A DNA stretch of 64,000 nt from Candidatus Micrarchaeia archaeon (GTDB taxonomy: Archaea > Micrarchaeota > Micrarchaeia > Anstonellales > Bilamarchaeaceae): contig JBAZFC010000001.1 of the NCBI GenBank assembly GCA_041653635.1, positions 433,723-497,722 of the forward strand. The letters are read 5' to 3'. The position numbers and the translations under genes are program-made. The notes under the pieces are model-generated. The model was not told the origin of the DNA. It was given only the letters and a program-made list of their open reading frames with translations, and made no database searches. This document shows positions 2,442 through 59,190 of this stretch, in pieces. The first letter of the stretch is position 1; each line of letters starts with the position of its first letter.

Positions 2442-2795
2442 TCACCTTCTCTTCTTTCTCTTTGGAGCAGCCTTCTTCTTCGCCGCTTTTCTTGCCGGCT
2501 TCCTGGCCACGGCCTTCTTCGCCGCAGGCGCCTTCTTCATGGCGGAATACGGCGGCGCGAACACTGCCGGCCTCGCCATCCCCGGCCTCGGGGGCGGGAG
2601 CGGCCTCATCGCGGGCCTCGCACCCGGCGGGAGCGGCCTGTATATCGGCGTAATGGGCCTCGGCGGGATTGAGCCCGGCCTCGGCGGAGGCAGCGGCCTC
2701 ATCGCCGGCCTCGGAGCGGAAGGGGCCGGCCTGGATGCAGGCGCACCCTCGTCCTTGCCCAGGAAGAACTCCTTAATCGATTTTAGTATGCCCAT
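2442..2795 (-). CDS. Proline-repeat protein with K/A-rich basic C-terminal tail (hypothetical)
   Basis: 117 aa. Tandem PAMRPLPPPRPG repeats, then AKKAVARKPARKAAKKKAAPKRKKRR tail. TATA-like TTTTTATATTTTC about 30 nt upstream on the minus strand. Confidence 0.5.
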   Translation of the reverse strand: MGILKSIKEFFLGKDEGAPASRPAPSAPRPAMRPLPPPRPGSIPPRPITPIYRPLPPGARPAMRPLPPPRPGMARPAVFAPPYSAMKKAPAAKKAVARKPARKAAKKKAAPKRKKRR

Positions 2796-2892
2796 GCTAT
2801 CACATCCCTCTCTTCAAAGGGAAAATATAAAAAGGTTATCAGGGGTCGCACGAGAGCGAACGCTTTTAATCAGGCGCCAACCAATCCAACCC

Positions 2893-3378
2893 ATGGATTT
2901 CCTGAGGGTAAGCTGGGACGATGCGTCGCAGATGTGCGAGCGCCTCGCATCCAGGGTATCCTCGTCCGGCTTCAGGCCGGACGTCATAATAGGGATAAGC
3001 AGGGGCGGCCTCGTTCCCGCCCGCCTCCTCTCCGACATTCTGGGCCTGCACGAATTATATGTGATGCGCGTTTCGCTTTACACGGGCATCGGGAAGAAGG
3101 CCGCAGCGCCCAAAATAACGCAGCCCCTCCCGGCGAAGCTCGGCGGGAAGAAGGCATTGCTCGTTGACGACGTTTCAGACACAGGAAAGAGCCTGGAAGT
3201 TGCAAAAAAGCACGTCCTGGACATGGGCGCCGGGGAAGTGAAGGTCGCAACCCTCCATTTCAAGCCGCACTCCGCCTTCCGCCCGGACTTTTTTGAGGGC
3301 GAAACGGGCGCGTGGATAATCTATCCCTGGGAAATCCACGAATGCAGGCGCGAGCTGGGAGATAAAATGCCGGAGTGA
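2893..3378 (+). CDS. Purine phosphoribosyltransferase (HGPRT/XPRT-like)
   Basis: 161 aa from internal ATG. PRPP-binding motif ALLVDDVSDTGKSL, typical type I PRTase fold length. Confidence 0.75.
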   Translation: MDFLRVSWDDASQMCERLASRVSSSGFRPDVIIGISRGGLVPARLLSDILGLHELYVMRVSLYTGIGKKAAAPKITQPLPAKLGGKKALLVDDVSDTGKSLEVAKKHVLDMGAGEVKVATLHFKPHSAFRPDFFEGETGAWIIYPWEIHECRRELGDKMPE

Positions 3379-3943: not shown

Positions 3944-5839
3944 TCACTTCAACCGTATCGCTTCCAGGTTCAGGGGCGCCCTCGCCTCCCTCCTAAGCAG
4001 CGATGCAGCCGCGCGTGCGAGGTCGTCCGCCTTGTTCCAGTCCCCGTGCATCGTAAACACGCGTTCAGGGGTGGGCTTGAGGTTGCTCAGGAACGCCATG
4101 AGCTGGTGCCTGTCGCTGTGGCCGGAGAACCCTTCCACGGTCTCCACGCGCATCCTGATGTTCATTATCTTCGCCCTTCCGTCGTCCCCGGTCACGGGTA
4201 TCTCCTTCATGCCGCGCTGTATCTTGTGCCCGAGGGAGAGTGGGCTCTGGTAGCCCACGAATATCAGCGTATTCTTTTCATCCTCGGCCATGAGGCGCAG
4301 GTATTCCACCGAGGGCCCGCCGTTCATCATCCCAGAAGGCGCCAGTATCACCGAGGGCTCGCCAGTAACTATGGTCTCCTTGTCCGTGCCCTTCGCCACC
4401 TTGAGCATCGGGGACTCAAACGGGCTGTTGTTGGAGAGTATGCGCCTCTCTATGCTCTCGCGCAGGTATTCCGGATAAGCGGTATGTATCGCCGATGTCT
4501 CCATGACCATGCCGTCTATGTACACGGGGATGTTGAAGTTCGGGTCCCTCCTCGCGTAGTCCTCCAGCACGAGCATTATCTCCTGGCTCCTGCCGACCGC
4601 GAACACGGGTATGAGGACCTTGCCGCCCTTCGCCGCCGTCTCCTTTATGATATTCACCAGCCGGTCCTCCATGTCCCTCCTGTTCGAGGTGACGTCGTTC
4701 TTCGCCCCGTATGTGCTCTCCAGGAACAAGGTCTCTATCCGCGGGAAATGTGTGTTCGCCGGCTCAAACAATTTCGTATAGCCGAACTTCATGTCCCCGC
4801 TATATACGAGATTATGCAGCCCCTCGCCTATGTGCAGGTGCACCATCGCGCTGCCGATTATGTGGCCCGCGTTGTAGAGCGTCATCTTTATCTCCGGGGT
4901 TATGTCCACCACTTCCCCGTACTCCACCGGCACGACGCGCCTCAATTCCTTCTGGATGTCCTTCTTCCCATAAGGTGGGTCCACACCCAGGGACTTCTTC
5001 ATCAGGTCCACGGAATCCGTCTGGAGGAGCGCCATCAGCTCGCGCGTAGGCGGCGTGCAATAGACGGGCCCGTCGTATCCATATGCATACAAGTACGGGA
5101 GGAATCCCATGTGGTCTATATGGCCGTGGCTGATTATGACCGCGTCCAGCTCTTCCAGCGGGAACCCCATGAAATTCAGGTAGGGGTACGCCTTGCTCGG
5201 CTCGCTTATCACCGGGTTGATTCCCACGTCTATGAGTATGCGGCTGTGCGGCGTCTGCACCAGCATGCACGAACGCCCGACCTCCCTGAACGCGCCCAGC
5301 ATGGACACGCGCACCCACTCGCTGGAGGGCGGGGGCTGGCATATCTTCTTGCCCAGCGAGAGCAGGAATTTCTTCCGGTCATCCGCCTCCGCCATATACC
5401 CCTTCCTTATGCCCCTTATGGTGGCCGAAGGTATCGTCGGGCTCCTGAGCACGACCGGGGACCATCCCGTCCTGGTTATGATTTCCTTGAGTACGCTCCC
5501 GCCCTTCCCTATCACGAGCCCGGGCTTCAGCGCCTCTATGAACACTTCCGAGAAGATGGATGCGAAGGTTATGGAGCTTATGACCGCCTCCTTGGGCACC
5601 ACGCTCTCTATCTCTTTTCGCGCCTTCTCGATGTCCGCCAGCCTGCTCTGGTCCACGCGCACGCTGACCTTCTTGCGCACCGCGCCCGCGAGCTGCTTTA
5701 TGAGCTGGTCGTTCCTGTAGAAGGCGTCGATGTTCTTCACATATATGACTATGTTCAGCCCTTCGGCCTCCACCTTGGTAATCCCGCACTCCGCGGGCAT
5801 TATGTCTGATACTGTTTTCTCTATGTCTTTCTGTTGCAT
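3944..5839 (-). CDS. Archaeal CPSF1-type beta-CASP ribonuclease with N-terminal KH domains (aCPSF1)
   Basis: 631 aa. KH-like GKGG motifs N-terminal, metallo-beta-lactamase HGHIDHMG motif, and beta-CASP C-terminal region. Confidence 0.9.
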   Translation of the reverse strand: MQQKDIEKTVSDIMPAECGITKVEAEGLNIVIYVKNIDAFYRNDQLIKQLAGAVRKKVSVRVDQSRLADIEKARKEIESVVPKEAVISSITFASIFSEVFIEALKPGLVIGKGGSVLKEIITRTGWSPVVLRSPTIPSATIRGIRKGYMAEADDRKKFLLSLGKKICQPPPSSEWVRVSMLGAFREVGRSCMLVQTPHSRILIDVGINPVISEPSKAYPYLNFMGFPLEELDAVIISHGHIDHMGFLPYLYAYGYDGPVYCTPPTRELMALLQTDSVDLMKKSLGVDPPYGKKDIQKELRRVVPVEYGEVVDITPEIKMTLYNAGHIIGSAMVHLHIGEGLHNLVYSGDMKFGYTKLFEPANTHFPRIETLFLESTYGAKNDVTSNRRDMEDRLVNIIKETAAKGGKVLIPVFAVGRSQEIMLVLEDYARRDPNFNIPVYIDGMVMETSAIHTAYPEYLRESIERRILSNNSPFESPMLKVAKGTDKETIVTGEPSVILAPSGMMNGGPSVEYLRLMAEDEKNTLIFVGYQSPLSLGHKIQRGMKEIPVTGDDGRAKIMNIRMRVETVEGFSGHSDRHQLMAFLSNLKPTPERVFTMHGDWNKADDLARAAASLLRREARAPLNLEAIRLK

Positions 5840-6881: not shown

Positions 6882-6981
6882 CGGGCCCGGTGGGATTTGA
6901 ACCCACGACCGCCTGGTCACTCCTGCATTCAGGAGAAGGCATTCGAAGCCAGGCACGCTATCCAAGCTGCGCTACGGGCCC
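6882..6981 (-). tRNA. tRNA-Arg(TCG) with about 25-nt intron in the anticodon loop
   Basis: Acceptor stem GGGCCCG/CGGGCCC, D-arm GCGC..GCGT, anticodon stem CCTGG/CCAGG, T-arm GTGGG TTCAAAT CCCAC. There are 32 nt between the anticodon stem halves, i.e. loop CTTCGAA plus a 25-nt intron containing a CTCCTG/CAGGAG hairpin. Confidence 0.7.
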
Positions 6982-13064: not shown

Positions 13065-14246
13065 ATGCCTTCTTTTGGGGAGTTCGCATCTCCTTCCAGG
13101 ATTTTCCGGGACAGGGACGTCCTCTCACCGCATTTCATACCCAACACGCTGCATTTCAGGGAGCACCAGATACGCGAGCTGATGTCCATTCTCGCGCCCG
13201 CGCTGCAGGGCAAGAAGCCGCGCAACCTCATGCTATACGGAAAAACGGGCACGGGAAAAACATGCTGCACGAAGCACGTCTCCAGGAAGTTTGAGGAGGA
13301 GAACCCGAACGCGAAGATAATCTACATCAACTGCAGGATGTACAACAAGCCCTACAGGATACTCTCAAAGGCGATAAAATCCCTCACGGACGGCGTGGAC
13401 AAGCAGGGCTACGGCCTGCCTTTCTATTACGAGAAGATGCTGGAATGGTGCGGAACCGGCAGGCAGCTAATCCTCATCCTTGACGAGATAGACATGGCGA
13501 AGAACATAGATGAGCTCATATATACCCTTACAAGGGCGAACGACGAGCTGGAAAAGGGCGGCGTTTCCCTCATCGGGATTTCCAACCGCCTCACGTTCAA
13601 GGAGGGGCTGGACCCGAGGAGCAAGAGCAGCCTGTATGAGCGGGAGATGGTCTTCCCGCCCTACACCGCGCCGCAGTTGCAGAAGATTTTGCAGCAGCGC
13701 GTGGATCTCGCATTCAAGGAGAACGTGATAAGCGCAGGGGCCATAAACCTCGCGAGCGCCTTCACTGCGCAGGATTCCGGGGACGCCCGTTATGCGCTCA
13801 AATTGCTATTGCGCGCGGCTGAGCTTGCGGAGGAGAGGAGCCTCTCCAGGATTTCGGACGCCGAAGTGAAGGAGGCGAGGGACGTCGTTGAGACCGACCT
13901 CGTGAAGGAAGCTGTGGACAAATTACCTGAGCACCACCAATTGGTTTTGTACGCCGTAGGCCGGCTCACCCTTTCCGGGAGCAAGTACGCGCGCTTTGAG
14001 GACGGGAAGGACGGCTACCTCTTTTCCGGGGATGTGTATGAGGATTATTCCGAGCTCTGCTCCAAGCTGAGGAAGGCGGCCAAGACCGCGCGCTCTTATA
14101 GGAGTTACCTTACTGATTTGGAGATGCTCGGCCTCGTGACCACGGTGGAGAGCGGCAAGGGGATCCGCGGGCACACCAAGCTCATAAAGCTCGGGCACAC
14201 CCCGCAGGAGACCGTCTCCATGATGCGGCAGAAATTCGGTGAATGA
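13065..14246 (+). CDS. cdc6: Orc1/Cdc6 replication initiator
   Basis: 393 aa. LPHRE-type N-terminus (FREHQ), Walker A GKTGTGKT, AAA+ fold plus winged-helix C-terminus. Confidence 0.9.
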   Translation: MPSFGEFASPSRIFRDRDVLSPHFIPNTLHFREHQIRELMSILAPALQGKKPRNLMLYGKTGTGKTCCTKHVSRKFEEENPNAKIIYINCRMYNKPYRILSKAIKSLTDGVDKQGYGLPFYYEKMLEWCGTGRQLILILDEIDMAKNIDELIYTLTRANDELEKGGVSLIGISNRLTFKEGLDPRSKSSLYEREMVFPPYTAPQLQKILQQRVDLAFKENVISAGAINLASAFTAQDSGDARYALKLLLRAAELAEERSLSRISDAEVKEARDVVETDLVKEAVDKLPEHHQLVLYAVGRLTLSGSKYARFEDGKDGYLFSGDVYEDYSELCSKLRKAAKTARSYRSYLTDLEMLGLVTTVESGKGIRGHTKLIKLGHTPQETVSMMRQKFGE

Positions 14247-20115: not shown

Positions 20116-20190
20116 TATCGGGCCCGGGGGGATTTGAACCCCCGGCCTACGGATTAAAAGTCCGCCGCTCTGACCAAGCTGAGCTACGGG
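20116..20190 (-). tRNA. tRNA-Lys(TTT)
   Basis: Cloverleaf read by hand. Acceptor GGGCCCG/CGGGCCC, anticodon loop CTTTTAA, T-arm GGGGG TTCAAAT CCCCC. Confidence 0.85.
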
Positions 20191-20230
20191 CCCAAGAGCA
20201 AACACTATTAACGCATCAAATAGTTTTAAA

Positions 20231-41351: not shown

Positions 41352-42581
41352 CTAGAGAATAATATACGCGTTCCCCTTCTTCGTAATCGTCAAAGCAGTT
41401 TCCCCGGAGAACCCGAACGTCTTCGCATATCCCTTCTCTATCTTTATGCGCATCCCGTCCCTCACGAGCGCCCCGCGGTTGTCAAATATGTATATCACTC
41501 CCTCGCTCCCCTCTTCGTCCGCCACCACGAGCCTTGTCAGGTTTTCCTTCACCCTCTTGCTCTTCTGGTACTCCTTCTGCTCCACGCTCTTCACGAGCAG
41601 CGGAACCGTGGTCACGTTCCTCATGCCGCTTTTAAGCTCCGTGAGATGGGTAATATTCATCTGCTTGTGCCTGTCCTTCGCAACCCTGAACGCCAGCTTT
41701 ATCTCCTCCTCCGCGTTCCTCACCATGTTCTGCATCGCCTTTTTCATGACGTCCTCGTCACCTTCCGAGGCGAGCATCGTATCATAAGCAAGCCTGAACA
41801 GGCTCCCCTTCTCCTCCCTCTCCTCGCGCACCTCCTGCGCCTCAACCGCTTCGGGCGTCTCCAGCTCGCTGGAAATCTCGTCCATCTCCCTTCCGGCCCT
41901 GCCCATGTCCAGCTCCTTAGTCCCCACGCTCTGGAGCCCGAGCTTCCCATCCGTTGAATCTTCCGAGGGCTCTTCGGTTTCCGGCTCCCTTCCCTCTTTC
42001 CCGTTGTTCTCCTTCTTCTCCGGAATCCCCGGCTTCTGCCCCTTCGCCTCGCCCTCGTCGCTTATCACGTGCGTCTCTGCACCTGAAATGACATCCAAAT
42101 AATCAGTAAGCATCTCCTGCACGGCCCTGCCCTTCTGCTCGTTAACCTGGCCGTTCTTGCCGAACGCCTTCATGTAAATCTTTTCCAGGGTGGGGAGCAT
42201 CCTGCCTTTCATCGCGGCGGCCTTCTCCTTGCCCAGCTTCCTCTCCATCAGCTGCTGCAGGGGCCTCATCATCTTCTCGCGCGCCGTTTCCGCCTTCCTC
42301 TCCTCCTCCACGCTCTTCTTCTCCTCGGGCTTCTCGTCCGCGCCGTTCTTGAACACTTCCGCGAACGACATGAGCTCCGGCTGCGCCACCCTCTTTCCAT
42401 CCAGCAGCGTCCTCGCGAGCGTGCTCACGCTCGCATCCTTGTCGTAGGTAAGCTCCAATAGCGCGAAGTTCGCCGCAGGGTCCTCATACCTTGCAAGCTC
42501 TGCCGCGGCCTGCTTCCTGACCTGCGGGTTCGCGTCAAAAGTGAGCGACACTAGCTCATTGAGAGTCGGTTTGCGCGTCAT
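41352..42581 (-). CDS. HEAT-like repeat / low-complexity E,K-rich hypothetical protein
   Basis: 410 aa from internal ATG 42581. N-terminal HEAT/PBS-lyase-like repeats. Confidence 0.5.
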   Translation of the reverse strand: MTRKPTLNELVSLTFDANPQVRKQAAAELARYEDPAANFALLELTYDKDASVSTLARTLLDGKRVAQPELMSFAEVFKNGADEKPEEKKSVEEERKAETAREKMMRPLQQLMERKLGKEKAAAMKGRMLPTLEKIYMKAFGKNGQVNEQKGRAVQEMLTDYLDVISGAETHVISDEGEAKGQKPGIPEKKENNGKEGREPETEEPSEDSTDGKLGLQSVGTKELDMGRAGREMDEISSELETPEAVEAQEVREEREEKGSLFRLAYDTMLASEGDEDVMKKAMQNMVRNAEEEIKLAFRVAKDRHKQMNITHLTELKSGMRNVTTVPLLVKSVEQKEYQKSKRVKENLTRLVVADEEGSEGVIYIFDNRGALVRDGMRIKIEKGYAKTFGFSGETALTITKKGNAYIIL

Positions 42582-43368
42582 CCTTAACACCCAGCTCCTC
42601 CAGGGCCAAACGGAACACGTTGAGGAGCGCATGCCCCTCGTCCTTGGTCGGATTCGCCCTCGCGAGAACCCTCGCGAACGCAACCTTGCACCTTCCCGGG
42701 TTGCGAAGCCTATATCTCGCCGCCATCTTATTAAACATATGCGTGAGTGCGCGCCTCTCCGAAGGCGAAAGCCGCTCTTCCCCCCAAGAGGAAGGGGGGG
42801 CACCCCCCTTCTCTCTAGGGTACTCATAACCCCCCATTTTTGTCCTTGCAAACCCAGCTTTAGCCATCCCACTATCAATGGAATACAGAACCACCGCAAC
42901 CGCATGGCTAAGGTTCAGCACCGGATAGCCCGCGTGCGTTTCCGCATGCACCAGCAGGTCGCACGCGCTTATCTCCTTTTCATTGAGCCCTATCCCCTCC
43001 CTGCCGAAAACCAGCGCTATCCTCTGCCCGCCGCGCTCCCCCAGTCCGGCGCAGAACTTTTTCAGGGGCACCGCCGCCCGTATCGTCCCCTTGTTCCTCT
43101 TCAGGATGCCCGTCGTCCCCACCACGAGGCCGCAATCCCCCACCGCCTCCCGCAGCGTCCCGTACCTCTTCGCCTTTTTCAGGAGCCCCACCGCATGCTT
43201 TGAGAACTTGACAGCGTCGGCCCCCAGCCCGCATTTCGGGCCCGCTATCCTCAAATCAGAAAAGCCGAAATTCTTCATAACGCGCGCGGCCATGCCGACA
43301 TTAACATCGTATTCCGGCCCTACAAGGACCACGCAGAACGTGGGCGCGGCCCCTTTTTTCCCGCCCAT
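42556..43368 (-). CDS. SpoU/TrmH-family RNA 2'-O-methyltransferase with C-terminal extension
   Basis: 270 aa from ATG 43368. SPOUT knot motifs (LVFGREGIGL, AVAVVLY). C-terminal extension contains the in-frame repeat copy E. Confidence 0.75.
   Translation of the reverse strand: MGGKKGAAPTFCVVLVGPEYDVNVGMAARVMKNFGFSDLRIAGPKCGLGADAVKFSKHAVGLLKKAKRYGTLREAVGDCGLVVGTTGILKRNKGTIRAAVPLKKFCAGLGERGGQRIALVFGREGIGLNEKEISACDLLVHAETHAGYPVLNLSHAVAVVLYSIDSGMAKAGFARTKMGGYEYPREKGGAPPSSWGEERLSPSERRALTHMFNKMAARYRLRNPGRCKVAFARVLARANPTKDEGHALLNVFRLALEELGVKDDAQTDSQ
42779..42870 (+). repeat. Dispersed hairpin repeat, copy E (inside the SpoU CDS, in-frame)
   Basis: CCAAGAGGAAGGGGGGGCACCCCCCTTCTCTCTAGGGTACTCATAACCCCCCATTTTTG... 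homologous to copies A-D. Confidence 0.7.
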
Positions 43369-50755: not shown

Positions 50756-50855
50756 TCTCCAAGAGGAAGAGGGGGGAACTCCCCCCTCCTCTCTTTAGGG
50801 TAATCATACCTCCCCCCACTTCTCATCGCAACCCTTTGCACGTACTCCTTACGCA
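50756..50855 (+). repeat. Dispersed hairpin repeat, copy A
   Basis: AAGAGGAAGAGGGGGG-AACT-CCCCCCTCCTCTCTT hairpin, then TAGGGTAATCATACCTCCCCCCACTTC...CCCTTTGCACGTACTCCTTACGCA. The tail overlaps the stop codon of the P-type ATPase. Confidence 0.75.
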
Positions 50856-53452
50856 ATGGAAGGAAAACCCTTCCTTGAGCGCATCCCCATCCATTTCCGC
50901 ATCTCAAGATAAGCGAAGAGGAACACGCTGGTCCCCAGCACCACCGCCCAGTGCTCCAGCGCCAGCGGCTTGACCGCAAAGAGCACGTTCAGCTCCGGCA
51001 CATACAGAATCGCCAGGTGCATGCCCATGGTCAGCAACACAGTGAGCACTATCCATTTGTTCGCGAGAATCTCCCTCCACACCGGCCTTTCCAGGGACCT
51101 GCACGCGAACACCTTGGTCTTCTCCATCGCGACAAGCATCGTGAAAACCATGGTCTGCGCGAGCACCATGTCGCCGCCGCCCATAACCCATGCAAATGAG
51201 GCGAGAGTGGCGAATGTCATTATTATGGGCGACTCCACAAGGTACAATTCCATCCCGATCCATATGTTTTCATTCCTCTGCCTAGGCATCTTCTTCATCA
51301 CGTCCCCGCTTATGGGGTCCACCGCGAGCGCCACCGCGGGCAGGCCGTCCGTGACCAGGTTTATCCATAATATCTGTATCGCAACAAGGGGGAGGGGCAT
51401 CCCGAGCATCACCGCGAGGAATATGACCGCCACCTCCGCGATGTTCCCGGAAATCAAAAACGCCACCGTCTTCTTTATGTTCTCATAGATGCCGCGCCCC
51501 TCCTCCACCGCAGCAACGATTGTCGCAAAATTGTCATCAGCCAGCACCATGTCCGAGCTCTCCTTCGCGACCTCGGTGCCGGTTATGCCCATCGCCACCC
51601 CTATGTCCGCCTTCTTCAGGGCGGGCGCATCGTTCACCCCGTCCCCGGTCATCGCGACCACGTGCCCCCTCGCGTTGAGCGCATCAATTATCCTCAGCTT
51701 GTGCGCGGGCGATACCCGAGCATACACCGAAATGCCGTCCACTGCCCCAAGAAATTCCTCTTTCCCCATCGCGTCCAGCTCTTCCCCGGTGAGCACCTTC
51801 CCGTTGCCTATCCCCAGCTCCTCCGCGACCGCCTTGGCGGTGAGCGGATGGTCGCCCGTAATCATCACAACCCTTATCCCGGCGCCCCTGCACAGCCCGA
51901 CCGCCTCCTTCGCCTCTGGCCGCGGGCTGTCCATCATCGCCACTATGCCCACGAAGACCAGCGCCTTCTCCACGTCCCCCTTCTTCGTCTTCCCGTCAAT
52001 GTCCCGGTACGCGAGCGCGAGCGTCCTGTACCCCTTGGAGGTGAGGGAGTCGTTCTCCAGCATTATCGCCTCAGCCTCGCCCCTGCCCAGCGGCCTGCTT
52101 CCTCCCCGTGCCCAAATCCTGGCGCATTTCCCCAGCACCACTTCCGGCGCGCCCTTCGCATAAGCAATATGCTTGTTCCCGCTGCCCCTCACAGTTGTCA
52201 TCATCTTCCTGTCCGAATCAAACGGGAACTCAAACATCACCGGGTTCTCCCTTTCCAGTTCGTCCTTCCAAATCCCGCCTTTCGCCGCGAGGACGAGCAG
52301 CGCACCCTCCGTGGGGTCGCCGACCACTTCCCAGCCCTTCTTCTTTTCCAGCCAGGCGTTGTTGCACAGGGCCCCGATTTTCATCGCCAATTGCAGCCCC
52401 TCGTCCGCGCCCACCGCCTTCCCGCCAGACCTGAACTCGCCCCTCGGCTCATATCCCGAGCCGCCGACCTCGAAAACCTTCCCGCCTACCAGCACCCTCC
52501 GGACAGTCATCTCGTTCCGCGTCAGCGTCCCAGTCTTGTCCGTGCAGATGACGTCCGCGCACCCGAGCGTCTCCACCGATTTTAGTTTTTTCACTATCGC
52601 GTTCCGCCTGCTCATCCTCTGCACGCCCACGGCCAGCGTAATCACGACCACGGCGGGCAGTCCCTCCGGAATGGCAGCCACCGCGAGGCTCACCGAAGTA
52701 AGGAACATCCCCACCGGCTCGAATCCCCTCGCCAGCCCGGCGAGGAATATGAACGCGCAAAGCACGAGCACCCCCACCCCCAGCTGCCTGCCCATCCTGT
52801 CCAGGTCAACTTCCAGGGGAGTCCTCTCCTTCTGCACGGTCTGCACCATCTCGGTTATGCCGCCCATCCGGGTGGCCATCCCAGTCTTCTCAACGAGCAT
52901 CCTTCCCCTGCCCGCGACTATCACCGTTCCAGTCCATGCGCGGTCCTTCCCTGCCTCGTGCTTGTGCACAGGGACGCTCTCCCCGGTGAGCGCCGCCTCG
53001 TCCGCCGCAAGCCCGTACTGCTCCACCACCAATCCGTCCGCGGGCACGCGGTCCCCGGCCTCCAGCAGCACGATGTCGCCCGGCACGACCTCCCGCGCGT
53101 CTATGTTCGCCGCCTTCCCGTCCCTCAGCACGTTCGCTCGGGGCGAGACCATCCTCCTCAACGCCTCAAAGGATTTCTCCGCCTTGTACTCCTGCACGAA
53201 CCCGATTATCGCGTGCAGGAAAACAATCGCAAGTATCATTATCACATCCAGCCCCTCGCCCAGCAGTTGGGCGACTATCGCCGCCGCGATAAGGAGCAAA
53301 ACCAGGAAATCCGTGAACTGCCTCAGGAATTTGACCACTACGTGCTCCCCTTTTTTCTCCCGCAGCTCGTTGGGCCCGTATTTCCTGAAGAGCCTGGCAG
53401 CCTCAGCGCCGCTCAAGCCCGCATACCTTGCCATCGCTTTTTGTTCAGGCAC
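50849..53452 (-). CDS. P-type cation-transporting ATPase (type IIA, Ca2+-ATPase-like)
   Basis: 867 aa. DKTGTLT phosphorylation motif, TGDGVNDAPAL, ten-TM architecture. Confidence 0.9.
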   Translation of the reverse strand: MPEQKAMARYAGLSGAEAARLFRKYGPNELREKKGEHVVVKFLRQFTDFLVLLLIAAAIVAQLLGEGLDVIMILAIVFLHAIIGFVQEYKAEKSFEALRRMVSPRANVLRDGKAANIDAREVVPGDIVLLEAGDRVPADGLVVEQYGLAADEAALTGESVPVHKHEAGKDRAWTGTVIVAGRGRMLVEKTGMATRMGGITEMVQTVQKERTPLEVDLDRMGRQLGVGVLVLCAFIFLAGLARGFEPVGMFLTSVSLAVAAIPEGLPAVVVITLAVGVQRMSRRNAIVKKLKSVETLGCADVICTDKTGTLTRNEMTVRRVLVGGKVFEVGGSGYEPRGEFRSGGKAVGADEGLQLAMKIGALCNNAWLEKKKGWEVVGDPTEGALLVLAAKGGIWKDELERENPVMFEFPFDSDRKMMTTVRGSGNKHIAYAKGAPEVVLGKCARIWARGGSRPLGRGEAEAIMLENDSLTSKGYRTLALAYRDIDGKTKKGDVEKALVFVGIVAMMDSPRPEAKEAVGLCRGAGIRVVMITGDHPLTAKAVAEELGIGNGKVLTGEELDAMGKEEFLGAVDGISVYARVSPAHKLRIIDALNARGHVVAMTGDGVNDAPALKKADIGVAMGITGTEVAKESSDMVLADDNFATIVAAVEEGRGIYENIKKTVAFLISGNIAEVAVIFLAVMLGMPLPLVAIQILWINLVTDGLPAVALAVDPISGDVMKKMPRQRNENIWIGMELYLVESPIIMTFATLASFAWVMGGGDMVLAQTMVFTMLVAMEKTKVFACRSLERPVWREILANKWIVLTVLLTMGMHLAILYVPELNVLFAVKPLALEHWAVVLGTSVFLFAYLEMRKWMGMRSRKGFPSIA

Positions 53453-54240: not shown

Positions 54241-54340
54241 CCTCCAAGAAGAAGAGGGGGGCGCCCCCTCCTCTCTTTAGGGTAATCATACCTCCCCCCC
54301 CCACTTCACTAGGGGGACGCTTTGCACGTACTCCTCACGC
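54241..54340 (+). repeat. Dispersed hairpin repeat, copy B
   Basis: AAGAAGAAGAGGGGGGCGCCCCCTCCTCTCTT hairpin plus a TAGGGTAATCATACC... tail near-identical to copy A. Sits between the convergent psmA and pyrH stops. Confidence 0.75.
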
Positions 54341-54352
54341 GCTTTTCTGCAA

Positions 54353-55086: not shown

Positions 55087-55989
55087 TCAAATCCTGCACG
55101 AAACCCCGTGCTTCAAATAGTATTTCTGGTGGTATTCCTCAGCAGGATAGAATTCGCCCGCAGGCACTATCTCCGTCACAATAGGATTTCTATGTTTCTT
55201 CCCCTCCCCCTCTTTGGATTCCCTCGCCTCCTTCTCCTGTTTTTTGGAATGGAAAAATATCACGGAGCGGTACTGCGTTCCAAAATCCGGCCCCTGCCTG
55301 TTCGGCGTAGTGGGGTCGTGCATCCTCCAGAAAACATCCAGCAATTGCTTATACGATACTTTTGATGGGTCAAACTCCACCCGCACGGATTCCGCATGCC
55401 CCGTCTTCCCGCCGTGCACTTCCCAGTAAGTAGGGTTCTTCGCAGTCCCTCCTGCATATCCCGCGGTGGTGGAAACCACGCCCTTCACGGCATCAAACTG
55501 CTCCTGCACGTGCCAGAAGCACCCAGCAGCAAAAGTAGCAATCTCAGTCTTCATCTCCCCAGCATACGGCTTCAGCGCAGCCGCATTTATGCAATACCTC
55601 TTCCCGGTGGGAGGCGGCCCGTCGTCAAACACATGCCCCAGGTGCGCCCCGCAACGGGCGCACAAAACCTCCTTCCTTTCCATAAAGAGGTCCTTATCCA
55701 CTTTTATCCGCACATTCAATTCAGATACCGGCTCCCAGAAGCTCGGCCACCCGGTGCCGGACTCAAACTTCCTGCCCACCTCAAACAAATCAGTCCCGCA
55801 GCACACGCACTGGTACAGCCCCCTTCCCAGAGGAACATCGCACTTGCCGGTGAAGGGCATTTCCGTCCCTTTCTTCCGTGTAATTTCAAACTGTTCCGGG
55901 GTGAGGATTTTCCTCCACTCCGCGTCCGCCTTCACTACTTCCGGCAATTCCTCAACCGCCTTCTTCCTGGCGTTGAAAATCCTTACCAT
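55087..55989 (-). CDS. msrBA: Fused peptide methionine sulfoxide reductase MsrB-MsrA
   Basis: 300 aa. N-terminal MsrB (CxxC...RYCINAAAL) plus C-terminal MsrA (GCFWHVQ). Confidence 0.85.
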
Positions 55990-57057: not shown

Positions 57058-57432
57058 CTATTCCGGGCCCATCCTGAACACTACCGGAACCGGGAAGGGC
57101 GCCATCACGTTCTTGTGCAGCACGATTGCATTCTCCCCGGGAATGCAGGTGTTCGCCTCCAGCGTGTCCATCCCAATGCACAGACCCGTAAGTTCCGTTA
57201 TCTCCTCCGCGCCCTCGTGCATCTTCCCCTCGTCTATCCCGAACGTCCCGCCCATCCACTCATCATGCGAAGACGGCTGGAGCCCTCCCTTGAGCCAGAT
57301 TACCCTCCACGCGTCCTCGGCCAATTCATATTGGTAGAGCGAGGAATGCTGGACCGGCTGGTGCAGTAGCCCGAATGAGGAAAAGGAGAGCAGCACCACC
57401 AGCGCGATGAGCGCCTCCACGGTCTTCAGCAT
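57058..57432 (-). CDS. Small N-terminally anchored hypothetical protein
   Basis: 124 aa, one N-terminal hydrophobic helix. Confidence 0.4.
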   Translation of the reverse strand: MLKTVEALIALVVLLSFSSFGLLHQPVQHSSLYQYELAEDAWRVIWLKGGLQPSSHDEWMGGTFGIDEGKMHEGAEEITELTGLCIGMDTLEANTCIPGENAIVLHKNVMAPFPVPVVFRMGPE

Positions 57433-57454
57433 GCATGCGTCTTTTCCAAGAAAC

Positions 57455-57514
57455 CTATTTAATTACTATTTGAGTAATCCCCCCGATGCTTCTTACCGAG
57501 AAATACGCCCCTCA
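57455..57514 (+). repeat. Upstream duplicate of RFC promoter plus first 30 nt of rfcL CDS (direct repeat 1)
   Basis: GATGCTTCTTACCGAGAAATACGCCCCTCA matches 57656-57685 with 1 mismatch. Preceding about 30 nt also align with the genuine promoter region. Confidence 0.7.
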
Positions 57515-57612
57515 CCCAAAAACGCGGGGAGGGCACTCCCCCCATTTTTAGGGTTCATTCTGACCCCCTCCCACTTCACTTTGAAACCCTTTGCCCGCAC
57601 TCCTTACGCACG
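57515..57612 (+). repeat. Dispersed hairpin repeat, copy C (bidirectional terminator-like)
   Basis: CCCAAAAACGCGGGGAGGGCACTCCCCCCATTTTTAGGGTTCATTC...CCCTTTGCCCGCACTCCTTACGCA. A5-hairpin-T5 arrangement. Confidence 0.75.
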
Positions 57613-57625
57613 CGGTTTTCCTTAA

Positions 57626-57685
57626 TCTTATAAATTGTCTTTCAGTAATTCCTGCGATGCTTCTAACCGAGAAATACGCCCCTCA
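57626..57685 (+). promoter_or_regulatory. rfcL promoter (TATA TTATAAAT at 57628-57635) plus start of CDS, direct repeat 2
   Basis: TATA about 26 nt upstream of ATG 57657 (leaderless). Confidence 0.5.
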
Positions 57686-59090
57686 AAAAATTGAGGAAAT
57701 ACCCGGCAACACCGAGCTTAAGCAGAAGCTCAGGCGCTGGGCCCTCAACTGGGGAAGGGGCGAGCCGGGCAAGCCAATCCTGCTCACCGGCCCCACGGGC
57801 ACAGGCAAAACTGCTCTTGCCGTAGCCCTTGCCACGGAAATGGGGCTTGAGCTTGTGCAGATGGGCGCGAGCGAGCTGCGCAACAGGGAACGTGTGGAAA
57901 AAATAATGCATGGGGCGATGATGGCGTCCACCCTCTCCGGGAAAGGCAAGCTGGTTCTAATAGACGACGTTGATGCGATGTCCGGAAGGGAGGACTCGGG
58001 TGGCGTCTCCTCCATAGCGTCCGTCCTCCGCTCCCCAGCCCAGCCGATAATACTCACCGCAACCAACGCATGGGAAAAGAAGATATCCTCCCTCCGCTTC
58101 CTCTGCGACATCCTCACGCTCAAGAGGGCGATAGCCCCATCCATTGCGCGCATCCTCTCCCGCATCGCGGAGAAGGAGAGGATAGAGTGCCCGGTAGAAA
58201 AAATAGAAGGAATATCCGAGAACGCCAACGGTGACATACGAGGCGCGATAAACGACCTGCAGGCCTGCTCCCCAGGAATGCGCGACCGCGAGAAGGACAT
58301 GTTCGCGAGGATGTCCGCGCTCTACCGCTCCTCCACCTATTCCGAGGCGAGGGCGGCGGGCTTCGGGGATGTTGAGCACGACTACTTCAAGCTCTGGATA
58401 GACGAAAACCTGCCTGCTGTCTTTTCCGGAAGCGAGTTGGCGGACGCCTACTCCTCCCTTTCAAGGGCGGACATCTTTGACGGCAGGATACATTCCCGCC
58501 AGTACTGGGGCTTCCTCCGCTACTCCGGGGATTTGATGTGCGCAGGCACCGCTCTCGCTCACCCCGGCGCGGGCCAGAGGTTCATACGCTTCTCCTTCCC
58601 TTCCTACCTGCGCCAGATGTCCGCGACCACCGCCACGCGCGCAATCCTCCGTTCCCTCCGCTCCAAGGCGGGCAGGAGGCTGCACACCTCAGGCAAGGAG
58701 GCGGAAGGATCCCTCCCCATCCTCGCATTCATGCACGCGAACAGCCCCGCCGAGGTTGAATCCTTCTACGGGCTTGATGAAAAGGAGGTAGAGCTTCTCT
58801 CCTCCATGCTCCCGAAGGGAGTGCATGTGGTGAAGCCGGAGAAGAAAGAGGAGAAAAAGAAGGGCAAAAAAGAGGCAGATGGGAAGGAGAGCAAAGCCGC
58901 ACCGGAAGGAGCAAGCGAAACCGGGAAGGCAAGCCCCCCTGTCCGCGCGGCTGAGAAGGAAGTGAAGCGCGAGGAGAAAAAGGAGAAGGGAGTTCCCGGG
59001 AAGGAATCCGGTGAATCCACGAAGAAGGACCTCCTCCCCCCTAAGAGGCAGCCGCCGGCCCGCCATTCCAAGCTCAGCGAGTTCTTCTAG
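57657..59090 (+). CDS. rfcL: Replication factor C large subunit
   Basis: 477 aa. Clamp-loader AAA+ (LLTGPTGTGKT), MLLTEKYAP N-terminus typical of RFC. Confidence 0.85.
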   Translation: MLLTEKYAPQKIEEIPGNTELKQKLRRWALNWGRGEPGKPILLTGPTGTGKTALAVALATEMGLELVQMGASELRNRERVEKIMHGAMMASTLSGKGKLVLIDDVDAMSGREDSGGVSSIASVLRSPAQPIILTATNAWEKKISSLRFLCDILTLKRAIAPSIARILSRIAEKERIECPVEKIEGISENANGDIRGAINDLQACSPGMRDREKDMFARMSALYRSSTYSEARAAGFGDVEHDYFKLWIDENLPAVFSGSELADAYSSLSRADIFDGRIHSRQYWGFLRYSGDLMCAGTALAHPGAGQRFIRFSFPSYLRQMSATTATRAILRSLRSKAGRRLHTSGKEAEGSLPILAFMHANSPAEVESFYGLDEKEVELLSSMLPKGVHVVKPEKKEEKKKGKKEADGKESKAAPEGASETGKASPPVRAAEKEVKREEKKEKGVPGKESGESTKKDLLPPKRQPPARHSKLSEFF

Positions 59091-59190
59091 AGAAAACGCG
59101 GAGGGAGCGCCCTCCCCATTTTCTTCTATCTTTCTGCCCCTCCCCACCTCCGCTTGGAAACGCTTTGCACTGCTTTATCCATCTCCCCCG
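59091..59190 (+). repeat. Dispersed hairpin repeat, copy D (terminator-like, 3' of rfcL)
   Basis: AGAAAACGCGGAGGGAGCGCCCTCCCCATTTTCTTCTATCTTTCT...GCTTTGCACTGCTTTATCC. Hairpin plus T-rich tract directly after the rfcL stop. Confidence 0.7.

Follow-up and report, generated by a model that had tools for sequence, protein, structure and literature searches.

How does the start of an essential replication gene come to be present twice, with a repeated element lodged between the two copies? The question is raised by a 64,000-nucleotide (nt) stretch of DNA from Candidatus Micrarchaeia archaeon (assembly GCA_041653635.1, contig JBAZFC010000001.1, positions 433,723 to 497,722), which was analysed as a whole and is called the window here. 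The gene is rfcL, which codes for the large subunit of replication factor C (57657-59090, + strand; 477 amino acids (aa), with Pfam AAA, RFC1 C-terminal and lid domains; source annotation). It is preceded by a short structured repeat, element copy C (57516-57621, + strand), and by a second copy of its own 5′ end. We consider it likely, with a probability of about 0.8, that a ~106-nt non-autonomous structured element inserted at this site with a long duplication of the target, and that rfcL stayed intact; the accompanying steps of promoter use are those that we infer.

The duplicated start of rfcL and its empty sites

A repeat search of the window revealed a direct repeat of 55 nt (57460-57514 and 57631-57685; 84% identity, spacing 171 nt). 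Local alignment combined with shuffling reduced the robust duplication to 46 nt (57469-57514 versus 57640-57685, both read on the + strand), which spans positions -17 to +29 of rfcL. The upstream copy ends 1 nt before the 5′ end of the element, and the downstream copy runs on into the intact gene. The copies are identical at 41 of the 46 positions, made up of 13/17 in the non-coding part (-17 to -1) and 28/29 in the coding part, which reads GATGCTTCT[T/A]ACCGAGAAATACGCCCCTCA with a single base distinguishing the two copies. Distal to the 46-nt repeat, the similarity between 57433-57468 and 57608-57639 was not significant (p about 0.03-0.09). A duplication of the whole intergenic region (82 nt, 57433-57514) was therefore not retained: a gapped alignment is feasible, but its distal part is not significant, and the claim is limited to 46 nt. 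The original duplication may have been about 60-80 nt long. In a preliminary description of this DNA, a segment of ~60 nt was said to occur twice, 171 bp apart, with copy C in between; the repeat, its spacing and the position of copy C stand, and the robust extent becomes 46 nt.

The N-terminus of RfcL (MLL[TA]EKYAP) is conserved in homologues down to 49% identity, and 57657 is therefore taken as the true start; the C-terminus is conserved too. A 499-aa version of rfcL with a TTG start (57591-59090, + strand) begins inside copy C.

The site was compared with that of two relatives, L002 (Ca. Iainarchaeum sp. STC_97, 83% RfcL identity) and L003 (DeMMO3_23, 84%), and of two outgroups, L065 (66% RfcL identity) and L066 (60%). 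All four carry the divergent upstream gene, a spacer of 50-52 nt with one AT-rich box, and the rfcL ATG, with the 46-nt segment in single copy and no element. When the window was aligned with these relatives, one clean insertion of 171 nt was observed in the window. The stretch gaaacctatttaattactatttgagtaatc of the upstream copy is the same in L003 at 30 of 30 nt, despite 84% protein identity and, judged by sequence, the upstream copy is the ancestral promoter. Since the four genomes carry the ancestral state, the insertion with its long target-site duplication (TSD) is derived in the window lineage. The preliminary description had suggested a target-site or promoter duplication caused by the element and had proposed that related genomes be searched for an empty site; four were found, and long flanking duplications proved to be typical of the element family, as described below.

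The divergent gene, WC350_02690 (57058-57432, - strand), codes for a hypothetical protein of 124 aa without a Pfam match, and is syntenic in L002, L003, L065 and L066. Its start codon is 53 nt away from the ancestral rfcL start. The intergenic region between them, the presumed ancestral promoter region P1 (57433-57485), contains a TATA-like box, TATTTAATTA (57456-57465), centred about 26-28 nt from both divergent starts (57432 and 57486). This geometry suggests one shared, bidirectional TATA box for two divergent and probably leaderless genes. An AT-rich filler (57622-57639, + strand) separates the element from the downstream duplication, and holds a second TATA-like box, TTATAAAT (57628-57635, termed P2), 22-29 nt upstream of the rfcL ATG. 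P2 fits the TTATAAA(T/C) boxes found about 22-34 nt before many start codons of the window, and no Shine-Dalgarno-like sequence precedes the rfcL ATG. Most likely P2 is the working rfcL promoter. The register of the two boxes (TATTTAAT at 57456 and TTATAAAT at 57628) matches, and their homology is not demonstrable. The idea of a duplicated promoter therefore holds only in part: positions -17 to +29 are demonstrably duplicated, whereas the downstream TATA box is located in the AT-rich sequence that separates the element from the duplication.

The junction with the element creates a short open reading frame (ORF; 57486-57551, + strand), MLLTEKYAPHPKTRGGHSPHF followed by a stop, in which the first 10 codons of rfcL are fused to element sequence; it is absent from all relatives. 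The ORF enters the hairpin at 57526-57541 and then a run of five T (T5, 57545-57549), and its TAG stop uses the last T of that run. A short ORF running into the hairpin and T5 had been predicted, and is present, although it has 21 codons rather than 20. In a pattern scan, the hairpin and T-run of copy C gave a terminator-like score on both strands. The ORF would be a functionless by-product of the insertion, an accident of the junction.

The following series of events can be proposed. A structured repeat of ~106 nt would have inserted about 29 nt into the rfcL transcription unit, in a staggered-break type of insertion that would duplicate at least 46 nt (-17 to +29). The essential gene stayed intact because the duplication regenerated its start on the downstream side, and it would now be transcribed, probably as a leaderless mRNA, from the TTATAAAT box just 5′ of the downstream copy. 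The ancestral upstream promoter would have been retained with its single TATA box also driving the divergent gene: P1 is conserved although rfcL has moved 171 nt away, presumably because the P1 box still serves WC350_02690. P1 might then fire both ways, and the product in the rfcL direction would be ~60 nt long, carrying the first 29 nt of rfcL and stopping at the hairpin and T5. Archaeal transcription termination depends on oligo-T, and a homologue of the termination factor FttA/aCPSF1 is encoded at 3944-5839.

The element family and its flanking duplications

Copy C starts with CCAAAAACGCGG, followed by an extended hairpin (57518-57549, with a core stem at 57526-57541) that includes T5, and by TAGGGTTCATTCTGACCCCC. 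Its 3′ module (57567-57610) ends in CTCCTTACGCA, and the copy closes with a terminal GTTTTCC. It belongs to a C-type subfamily, with near-identical copies in L021, L037, L053/L055 and L054. The window contains five copies of the element, all on the + strand and all within 42-60 kb, and none in 1-42 kb. Besides copies C and D (the latter described below), these are the copies at 54245-54346, between a proteasome alpha-subunit gene and a convergent amino-acid-kinase gene; at 50759-50862, adjoining the 3′ end of tRNA-Leu(CAG); and at 42784-42884, which consists mostly of a short 5′ module. A 517-aa ORF call (41352-42905, - strand) runs across this last copy.

When metagenomes were scanned with the conserved 5′-module motif, the element was found on 54 loci or contigs; a two-module pattern gave 0 matches in metagenomes, and a 3′-module pattern gave 0 in viral contigs. 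The 5′ end is invariant, CCAAGAGGAAG, or CCAAAAACGCGG in the C-type subfamily, and across copies it starts precisely at CCAAGAGG or CCAAAAAC. There follow a G/C-rich hairpin, with compensatory changes at 4 base pairs and a loop that tolerates large insertions, the conserved segment TCTYTAGGGTAMTCATAMC(T)CCCCCC, and an optional 3′ module of about 45 nt that ends in CTCCTTACGC and then a short T-run. The tails 3′ of the element are T-rich, with a run of at least 4 T in 15/36 and a run of at least 4 A in 3/36. Folding of the + strand is suggested by a G.U pair conserved in the hairpin, though only weakly, since the pair never varies. The element family is modular. Some variants have an extra hairpin of ~35 nt, CGCTCCGAGCCCCATACATCGGGGCACGGACCGAA, between the first stem and TCTCTAGGG, and in others the hairpin loop accommodates a large structured insert of about 45 nt (variant loci: L003, 1690-1800; L010, L020, L024, L027, L037, L044, L053, L055 and L059; L018, L057 and L060). 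Nested or tandem copies occur in L030.

An ORF between the 5′ and 3′ modules, such as an autonomous version would have, was not found at the loci examined, and the modules are always contiguous. Transposase, integrase and reverse transcriptase domains were absent from the 37 window ORFs scanned, the window being 64 kb of a 1.03-Mb genome. Rfam 15, applied to the whole window at the gathering threshold and to two regions permissively, detected only tRNAs, and nothing with E≤1 overlapped the element copies. A reading as C/D-box small RNA, prompted by PMC6009581, was discarded, as neither strand has a proper C box (RUGAUGA) paired with a D box.

To learn how often such elements are flanked by duplications, the 100 nt before and the 220 nt after each of 47 non-redundant copies were compared. 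Significant flank-flank repeats (p<0.01) were present at 12 of the 47, against 0.5 expected. In 8 of the 12, and in 5 further cases that are marginal, 0-2 nt separate the end of the upstream repeat from the first base of the element. The repeats are 11-61 nt long with 73-100% identity, and the downstream one is preceded by 4-37 nt of non-conserved, T-rich filler and usually takes in the final codons of a convergent gene, with its stop codon. At the 54245 site, L003 and L009 carry orthologous copies with 20-36-nt duplications of a target that is single-copy, and the site is empty in L002. We conclude that long, variable duplications are a general property of the element family, and that the rfcL event is one instance of a family-wide behaviour that usually copies a gene terminus.

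The closest parallel to rfcL is found at a tRNA gene. In L029, a D-type element lies after position 32 of tRNA-Thr(TGT), preceded by a 32-nt copy of the 5′ end of that gene (31/32 identical), and the intact tRNA-Thr gene lies downstream of it after a 21-nt filler. In L025 and L029, 23-26 nt of tRNA-Thr 3′ ends are duplicated. The tRNA-Thr(TGT) gene at L029:2150-2370 (- strand) lies between the D-type copy and a main-type copy, the latter at its 3′ end with a 23-nt duplication. More generally, 18 of the 58 copies with an intact 5′ end lie within -3 to +3 nt of a tRNA gene end, and 0 at 4-200 nt. Of the 18, 14 adjoin the 5′ end of the tRNA gene in divergent orientation; the other four adjoin its 3′ end and have the strand of the tRNA gene. 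The tRNA species concerned number at least 10. Two readings are possible: the element may harbour the upstream promoter or leader of these tRNA genes, or tRNA boundaries may be what it targets.

The L002 site after tRNA-Leu(CAG), which corresponds to 50757-50878 of the window, was considered as an empty site and rejected: its 37 nt (L002:358-394) include AATAATACTC and TTCCTTACGCAA, which look like degraded remains of the element and point to decay through internal deletions. In L044, the orthologous copy after tRNA-Leu(CAG) is complete.

Copy D (59090-59170, + strand) opens on the final base of the rfcL stop codon, so that rfcL is bracketed by two element copies, as had been noticed at the outset. 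It is a member of the rarer D-type subfamily, like the copies in L029 and L065, and its 3′ module has lost 13 nt. About 11 nt of the target TTTTTCTAATC, stop codon included, are duplicated in degraded form on its two sides (left, 59081-59092; right, about 59172-59184). In L065 (2810-3020) a D-type element occupies the same junction (TTTTTCTAGAG joined to AAAAC...), with a complete 3′ module, a right-hand target copy TTTCTAA... and an extra internal insertion of about 100 nt; in L002, L003 and L066 the junction has no element. Copy D was at first a candidate for a recent insertion, being absent in L002 and L003, and this was dropped in view of the element at the same junction in the outgroup L065. 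It was also rejected as a sister event of copy C, since the subfamilies differ and L065 has an element at its site. Copy D is either old or marks a site that was hit recurrently, and it was apparently lost cleanly in some lineages.

A few other features of the window were recorded. A fused msrB-msrA gene (SelR and PMSR domains) at 55087-55989 is found at the same position in L003 and is replaced by ~90 nt in L002, so that close relatives differ here by an indel the size of a gene. An ORF with a phosphoribosyltransferase domain (2539-3378) contains a 93-nt direct repeat in tandem (2581-2743, 79% identity). An Orc1/Cdc6 homologue is encoded at 13065-14246, and a replication origin may be located near it. 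Finally, a 100-nt Rfam tRNA match (6882-6981, - strand; 54.8 bits), missed by ARAGORN, probably marks a tRNA gene with an intron; in its 5′ part it is similar to the tRNA-Lys at 20118-20194.

Weighing the insertion against other explanations

Several observations weigh against the insertion as set out above, or limit it. The TATA-bearing parts of the two copies lack significant similarity, so that either the original duplication was longer and has since decayed, or the filler gave rise to a new TATA box. In the upstream copy, the coding part is better kept than the non-coding part, a borderline difference that might point to constraint or to gene conversion. That the promoters are used, and that transcripts would end at the hairpin, is deduced from the sequence. 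Copy D has a counterpart in a distant relative yet none in closer ones, which indicates that copies can be lost cleanly, and hence absence in relatives is not absolute proof of gain. Finally, about two thirds of the family copies have no detectable flanking duplication, and the copies abutting tRNA genes mostly lack one; thus, long duplications are frequent, not universal.

Could the arrangement be a device selected to tune rfcL expression, with the upstream copy as a decoy promoter, or with the short ORF, hairpin and T5 as an attenuator? In its favour, an essential gene is indeed preceded by a promoter, by a short ORF and by a hairpin with T5, as in attenuator or leader-peptide control, and the upstream copy has kept its coding part almost unchanged (28/29). 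An antiterminator alternative and conservation, which also belong to such control, are missing: no competing antiterminator fold is predicted, the sole other structure being a 5-bp hairpin, and the arrangement is absent in 4/4 related genomes. Being confined to one lineage, it is not a conserved regulatory device. The tail of the ORF is element sequence and its stop overlaps the T-run, so that a terminated transcript would have no stop codon, and the lack of a Shine-Dalgarno-like sequence speaks against translation of rfcL from a read-through transcript. The same geometry is found at a tRNA gene, where a peptide plays no part, and the divergent gene accounts for the kept upstream promoter. The decoy or attenuator function suggested in the preliminary description is therefore unsupported and very unlikely.

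Had a unit comprising promoter, rfcL and copy D been duplicated in tandem, and the body of the first rfcL then been deleted, no element insertion would be needed at all. The order seen here (promoter, then 5′ fragment and element, then again promoter, gene and element) would result, and copies C and D, which bracket the gene, share the stem variant AAAACGCGG...CCCCATTTT. The two copies are, however, of different subfamilies, C fitting the C-type copies of L021, L037, L053 and L054 through TTTTTAGGGTTCATTCTGACCCCCTCCCACTTCAC, and D the D-type copies of L029 and L065. The 3′ module is complete in C and not in D; D is old, judging from the element at the same site in L065, whereas C is lineage-specific. 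Moreover, single elements at many other loci show the same kind of flanking duplication. We regard this explanation as quite improbable.

We give still less credit to the view that the flanking repeats are attachment (att) site duplications of a larger, site-specific integrating element that was later deleted to a remnant. Duplications of 20-60 nt at gene ends and tRNA ends do look like attL and attR, and the family is strongly tied to tRNA ends. Nevertheless, the same conserved element of ~55-106 nt lies between the repeats at dozens of unrelated targets, and the duplicated sequences have nothing in common, either among themselves or with the element. No ORF-bearing copy was seen, the 3′ module always coming directly after the 5′ module, and no integrase was found among the window ORFs scanned.

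The assemblies compared (Logan SRR18595300, ENA ERZ27247358 and the 1.03-Mb contig of the metagenome-assembled genome) were built separately. The left junction is spanned by Logan contig L063 (upstream gene, promoter 1, rfcL 5′ fragment, hairpin) and the right one by Logan contig L001 (hairpin, promoter 2, rfcL), and ENA contig L064 stops inside the upstream copy and has its diagnostic T. It is hardly credible that the duplication was produced by faulty assembly or binning at a repeated sequence: short-read assemblies do break at the element, the Logan contigs ending in the hairpin and the ENA contig in the repeat, but the copies differ at 5/46 positions and each junction is reproduced with its own variant bases.

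Relation to known mobile elements and significance

Insertion with a long target duplication thus being preferred, we asked to which kind of element the family belongs. It shares several traits with MITEs (miniature inverted-repeat transposable elements) and other small repeats (Correia/NEMIS, ERIC, RUP): the copies are short (about 55-106 nt), non-coding, multi-copy and hairpin-forming, they lie between genes or at gene ends, they are accompanied by target duplications, and they can lend terminator-like or promoter-like signals. Absence from orthologous sites was also observed, for copy C, copy D and the 54245 site. By definition, MITEs carry inverted repeats of at least 10-15 bp at their termini, and their TSDs have a fixed length of 2-10 bp (PMC11602168). 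In contrast, the 5′ end of the element (CCAAGAGGAAGGGGG or CCAAAAACGCGGGG) has no reverse-complement counterpart at its 3′ end (...ATAACCCCCC or ...CTCCTTACGCA..GTTTTCC). The only inverted repeat is the internal, 5′-proximal hairpin; the two termini are unrelated, and the 3′ end is variable and T-rich. The duplications are neither short nor fixed, with 46 nt at rfcL, 32 nt at tRNA-Thr, about 11 nt at copy D and 11-61 nt elsewhere.

Repetitive extragenic palindromes and the mosaic elements built from them (REP/BIME), which depend on REP-associated tyrosine transposases (RAYT), and other elements derived from the insertion sequences (IS) IS200/IS605 are 20-40-nt palindromes headed by a GT[AG]G tetranucleotide, and they insert without target duplication. 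The present element has no GTAG head, measures 55-106 nt with a non-palindromic conserved 3′ part, and is associated with target duplications.

Long direct repeats of variable length on insertion are cited for IS1634 and IS1549 (refs B60 and B61, as quoted in PMC2266710), and the same source calls the IS1634 family 'remarkably diverse in archaea' (PMC2266710). The long, variable-length direct repeats, 11 to >60 nt here, are a common trait. The IS elements are 1.5-2 kb long, with a DDE transposase and terminal inverted repeats, and in this respect they differ from the element, with which no such gene (among the 37 window ORFs) and no such repeats are associated. Apart from IS1634 and IS1549, we know of no prokaryotic transposable elements that make long, variable-length direct repeats.

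Archaeal integrative elements that target tRNA genes resemble the family in that a duplicated segment of 20-60 nt restores the gene end and leaves a fragment (L025, L029, rfcL). They differ in their fixed att core, kilobase size and integrase, whereas here the targets are diverse, the element is ~100 nt long and no sequence is shared with the targets.

A further likeness is to eukaryotic short interspersed elements (SINEs) and other small RNAs retroposed by target-primed reverse transcription, which also have a precise 5′ end, a variable 3′ tail, variable TSDs and no terminal inverted repeats, and are likewise non-coding, strongly structured and closely tied to tRNA genes. The tail of a SINE is A-rich, whereas that of the element is T-rich, like an archaeal termination signal, and the window ORFs scanned include no reverse transcriptase. 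Because promoters in archaea are located upstream of the genes, a retrocopy would lack a promoter of its own.

Taken together, a precise 5′ end, a variable T-rich tail, long variable duplications and exact tRNA abutment fall outside the usual categories (MITE, REP, IS-derived). A literature search for a described Micrarchaeota or DPANN repeat of a similar kind returned nothing relevant, and a Micrarchaeia repeat family with long, variable target duplications is apparently undescribed so far. By analogy with the systems above, and only tentatively, the family might represent a new kind of archaeal mobile element, one that has no terminal inverted repeats, uses variably staggered breaks (TSDs of 11 to about 80 nt) and targets the ends of transcription units. 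Such an element would fit the copying of a small RNA, that is, a SINE-like retroposon in DPANN archaea, or alternatively a template-switch insertion at stalled forks. If a small RNA were copied, the 5′ end would be set by a start site or by tRNA processing and the 3′ end by oligo-T termination. The targets proposed are positions about 30 nt after start sites, stop codons and exact tRNA gene boundaries. A target duplication with sequence inserted at its junction is also what a template switch during replication would leave behind. The mechanism of insertion is a question that can be approached experimentally.

The wider family is of more interest than the rfcL locus alone. In practical terms, the repeats break short-read assemblies, and the copies can mislead the annotation of start codons and give rise to spurious small ORFs. 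A small repeat is normally expected to kill a gene when it is inside it; a long duplication allows a seat within the first or last 30-60 nt of essential genes, as at rfcL, at tRNA genes and at the 3′ ends of many genes, and an intact gene end is kept. If the family is indeed a new kind of mobile element, its duplication of promoters and gene ends would rewire the transcription of essential genes without destroying them. In any case, the insertions give rise to spare promoters, short fusion ORFs, gene fragments and terminator-like hairpins, raw regulatory material in very small DPANN genomes.

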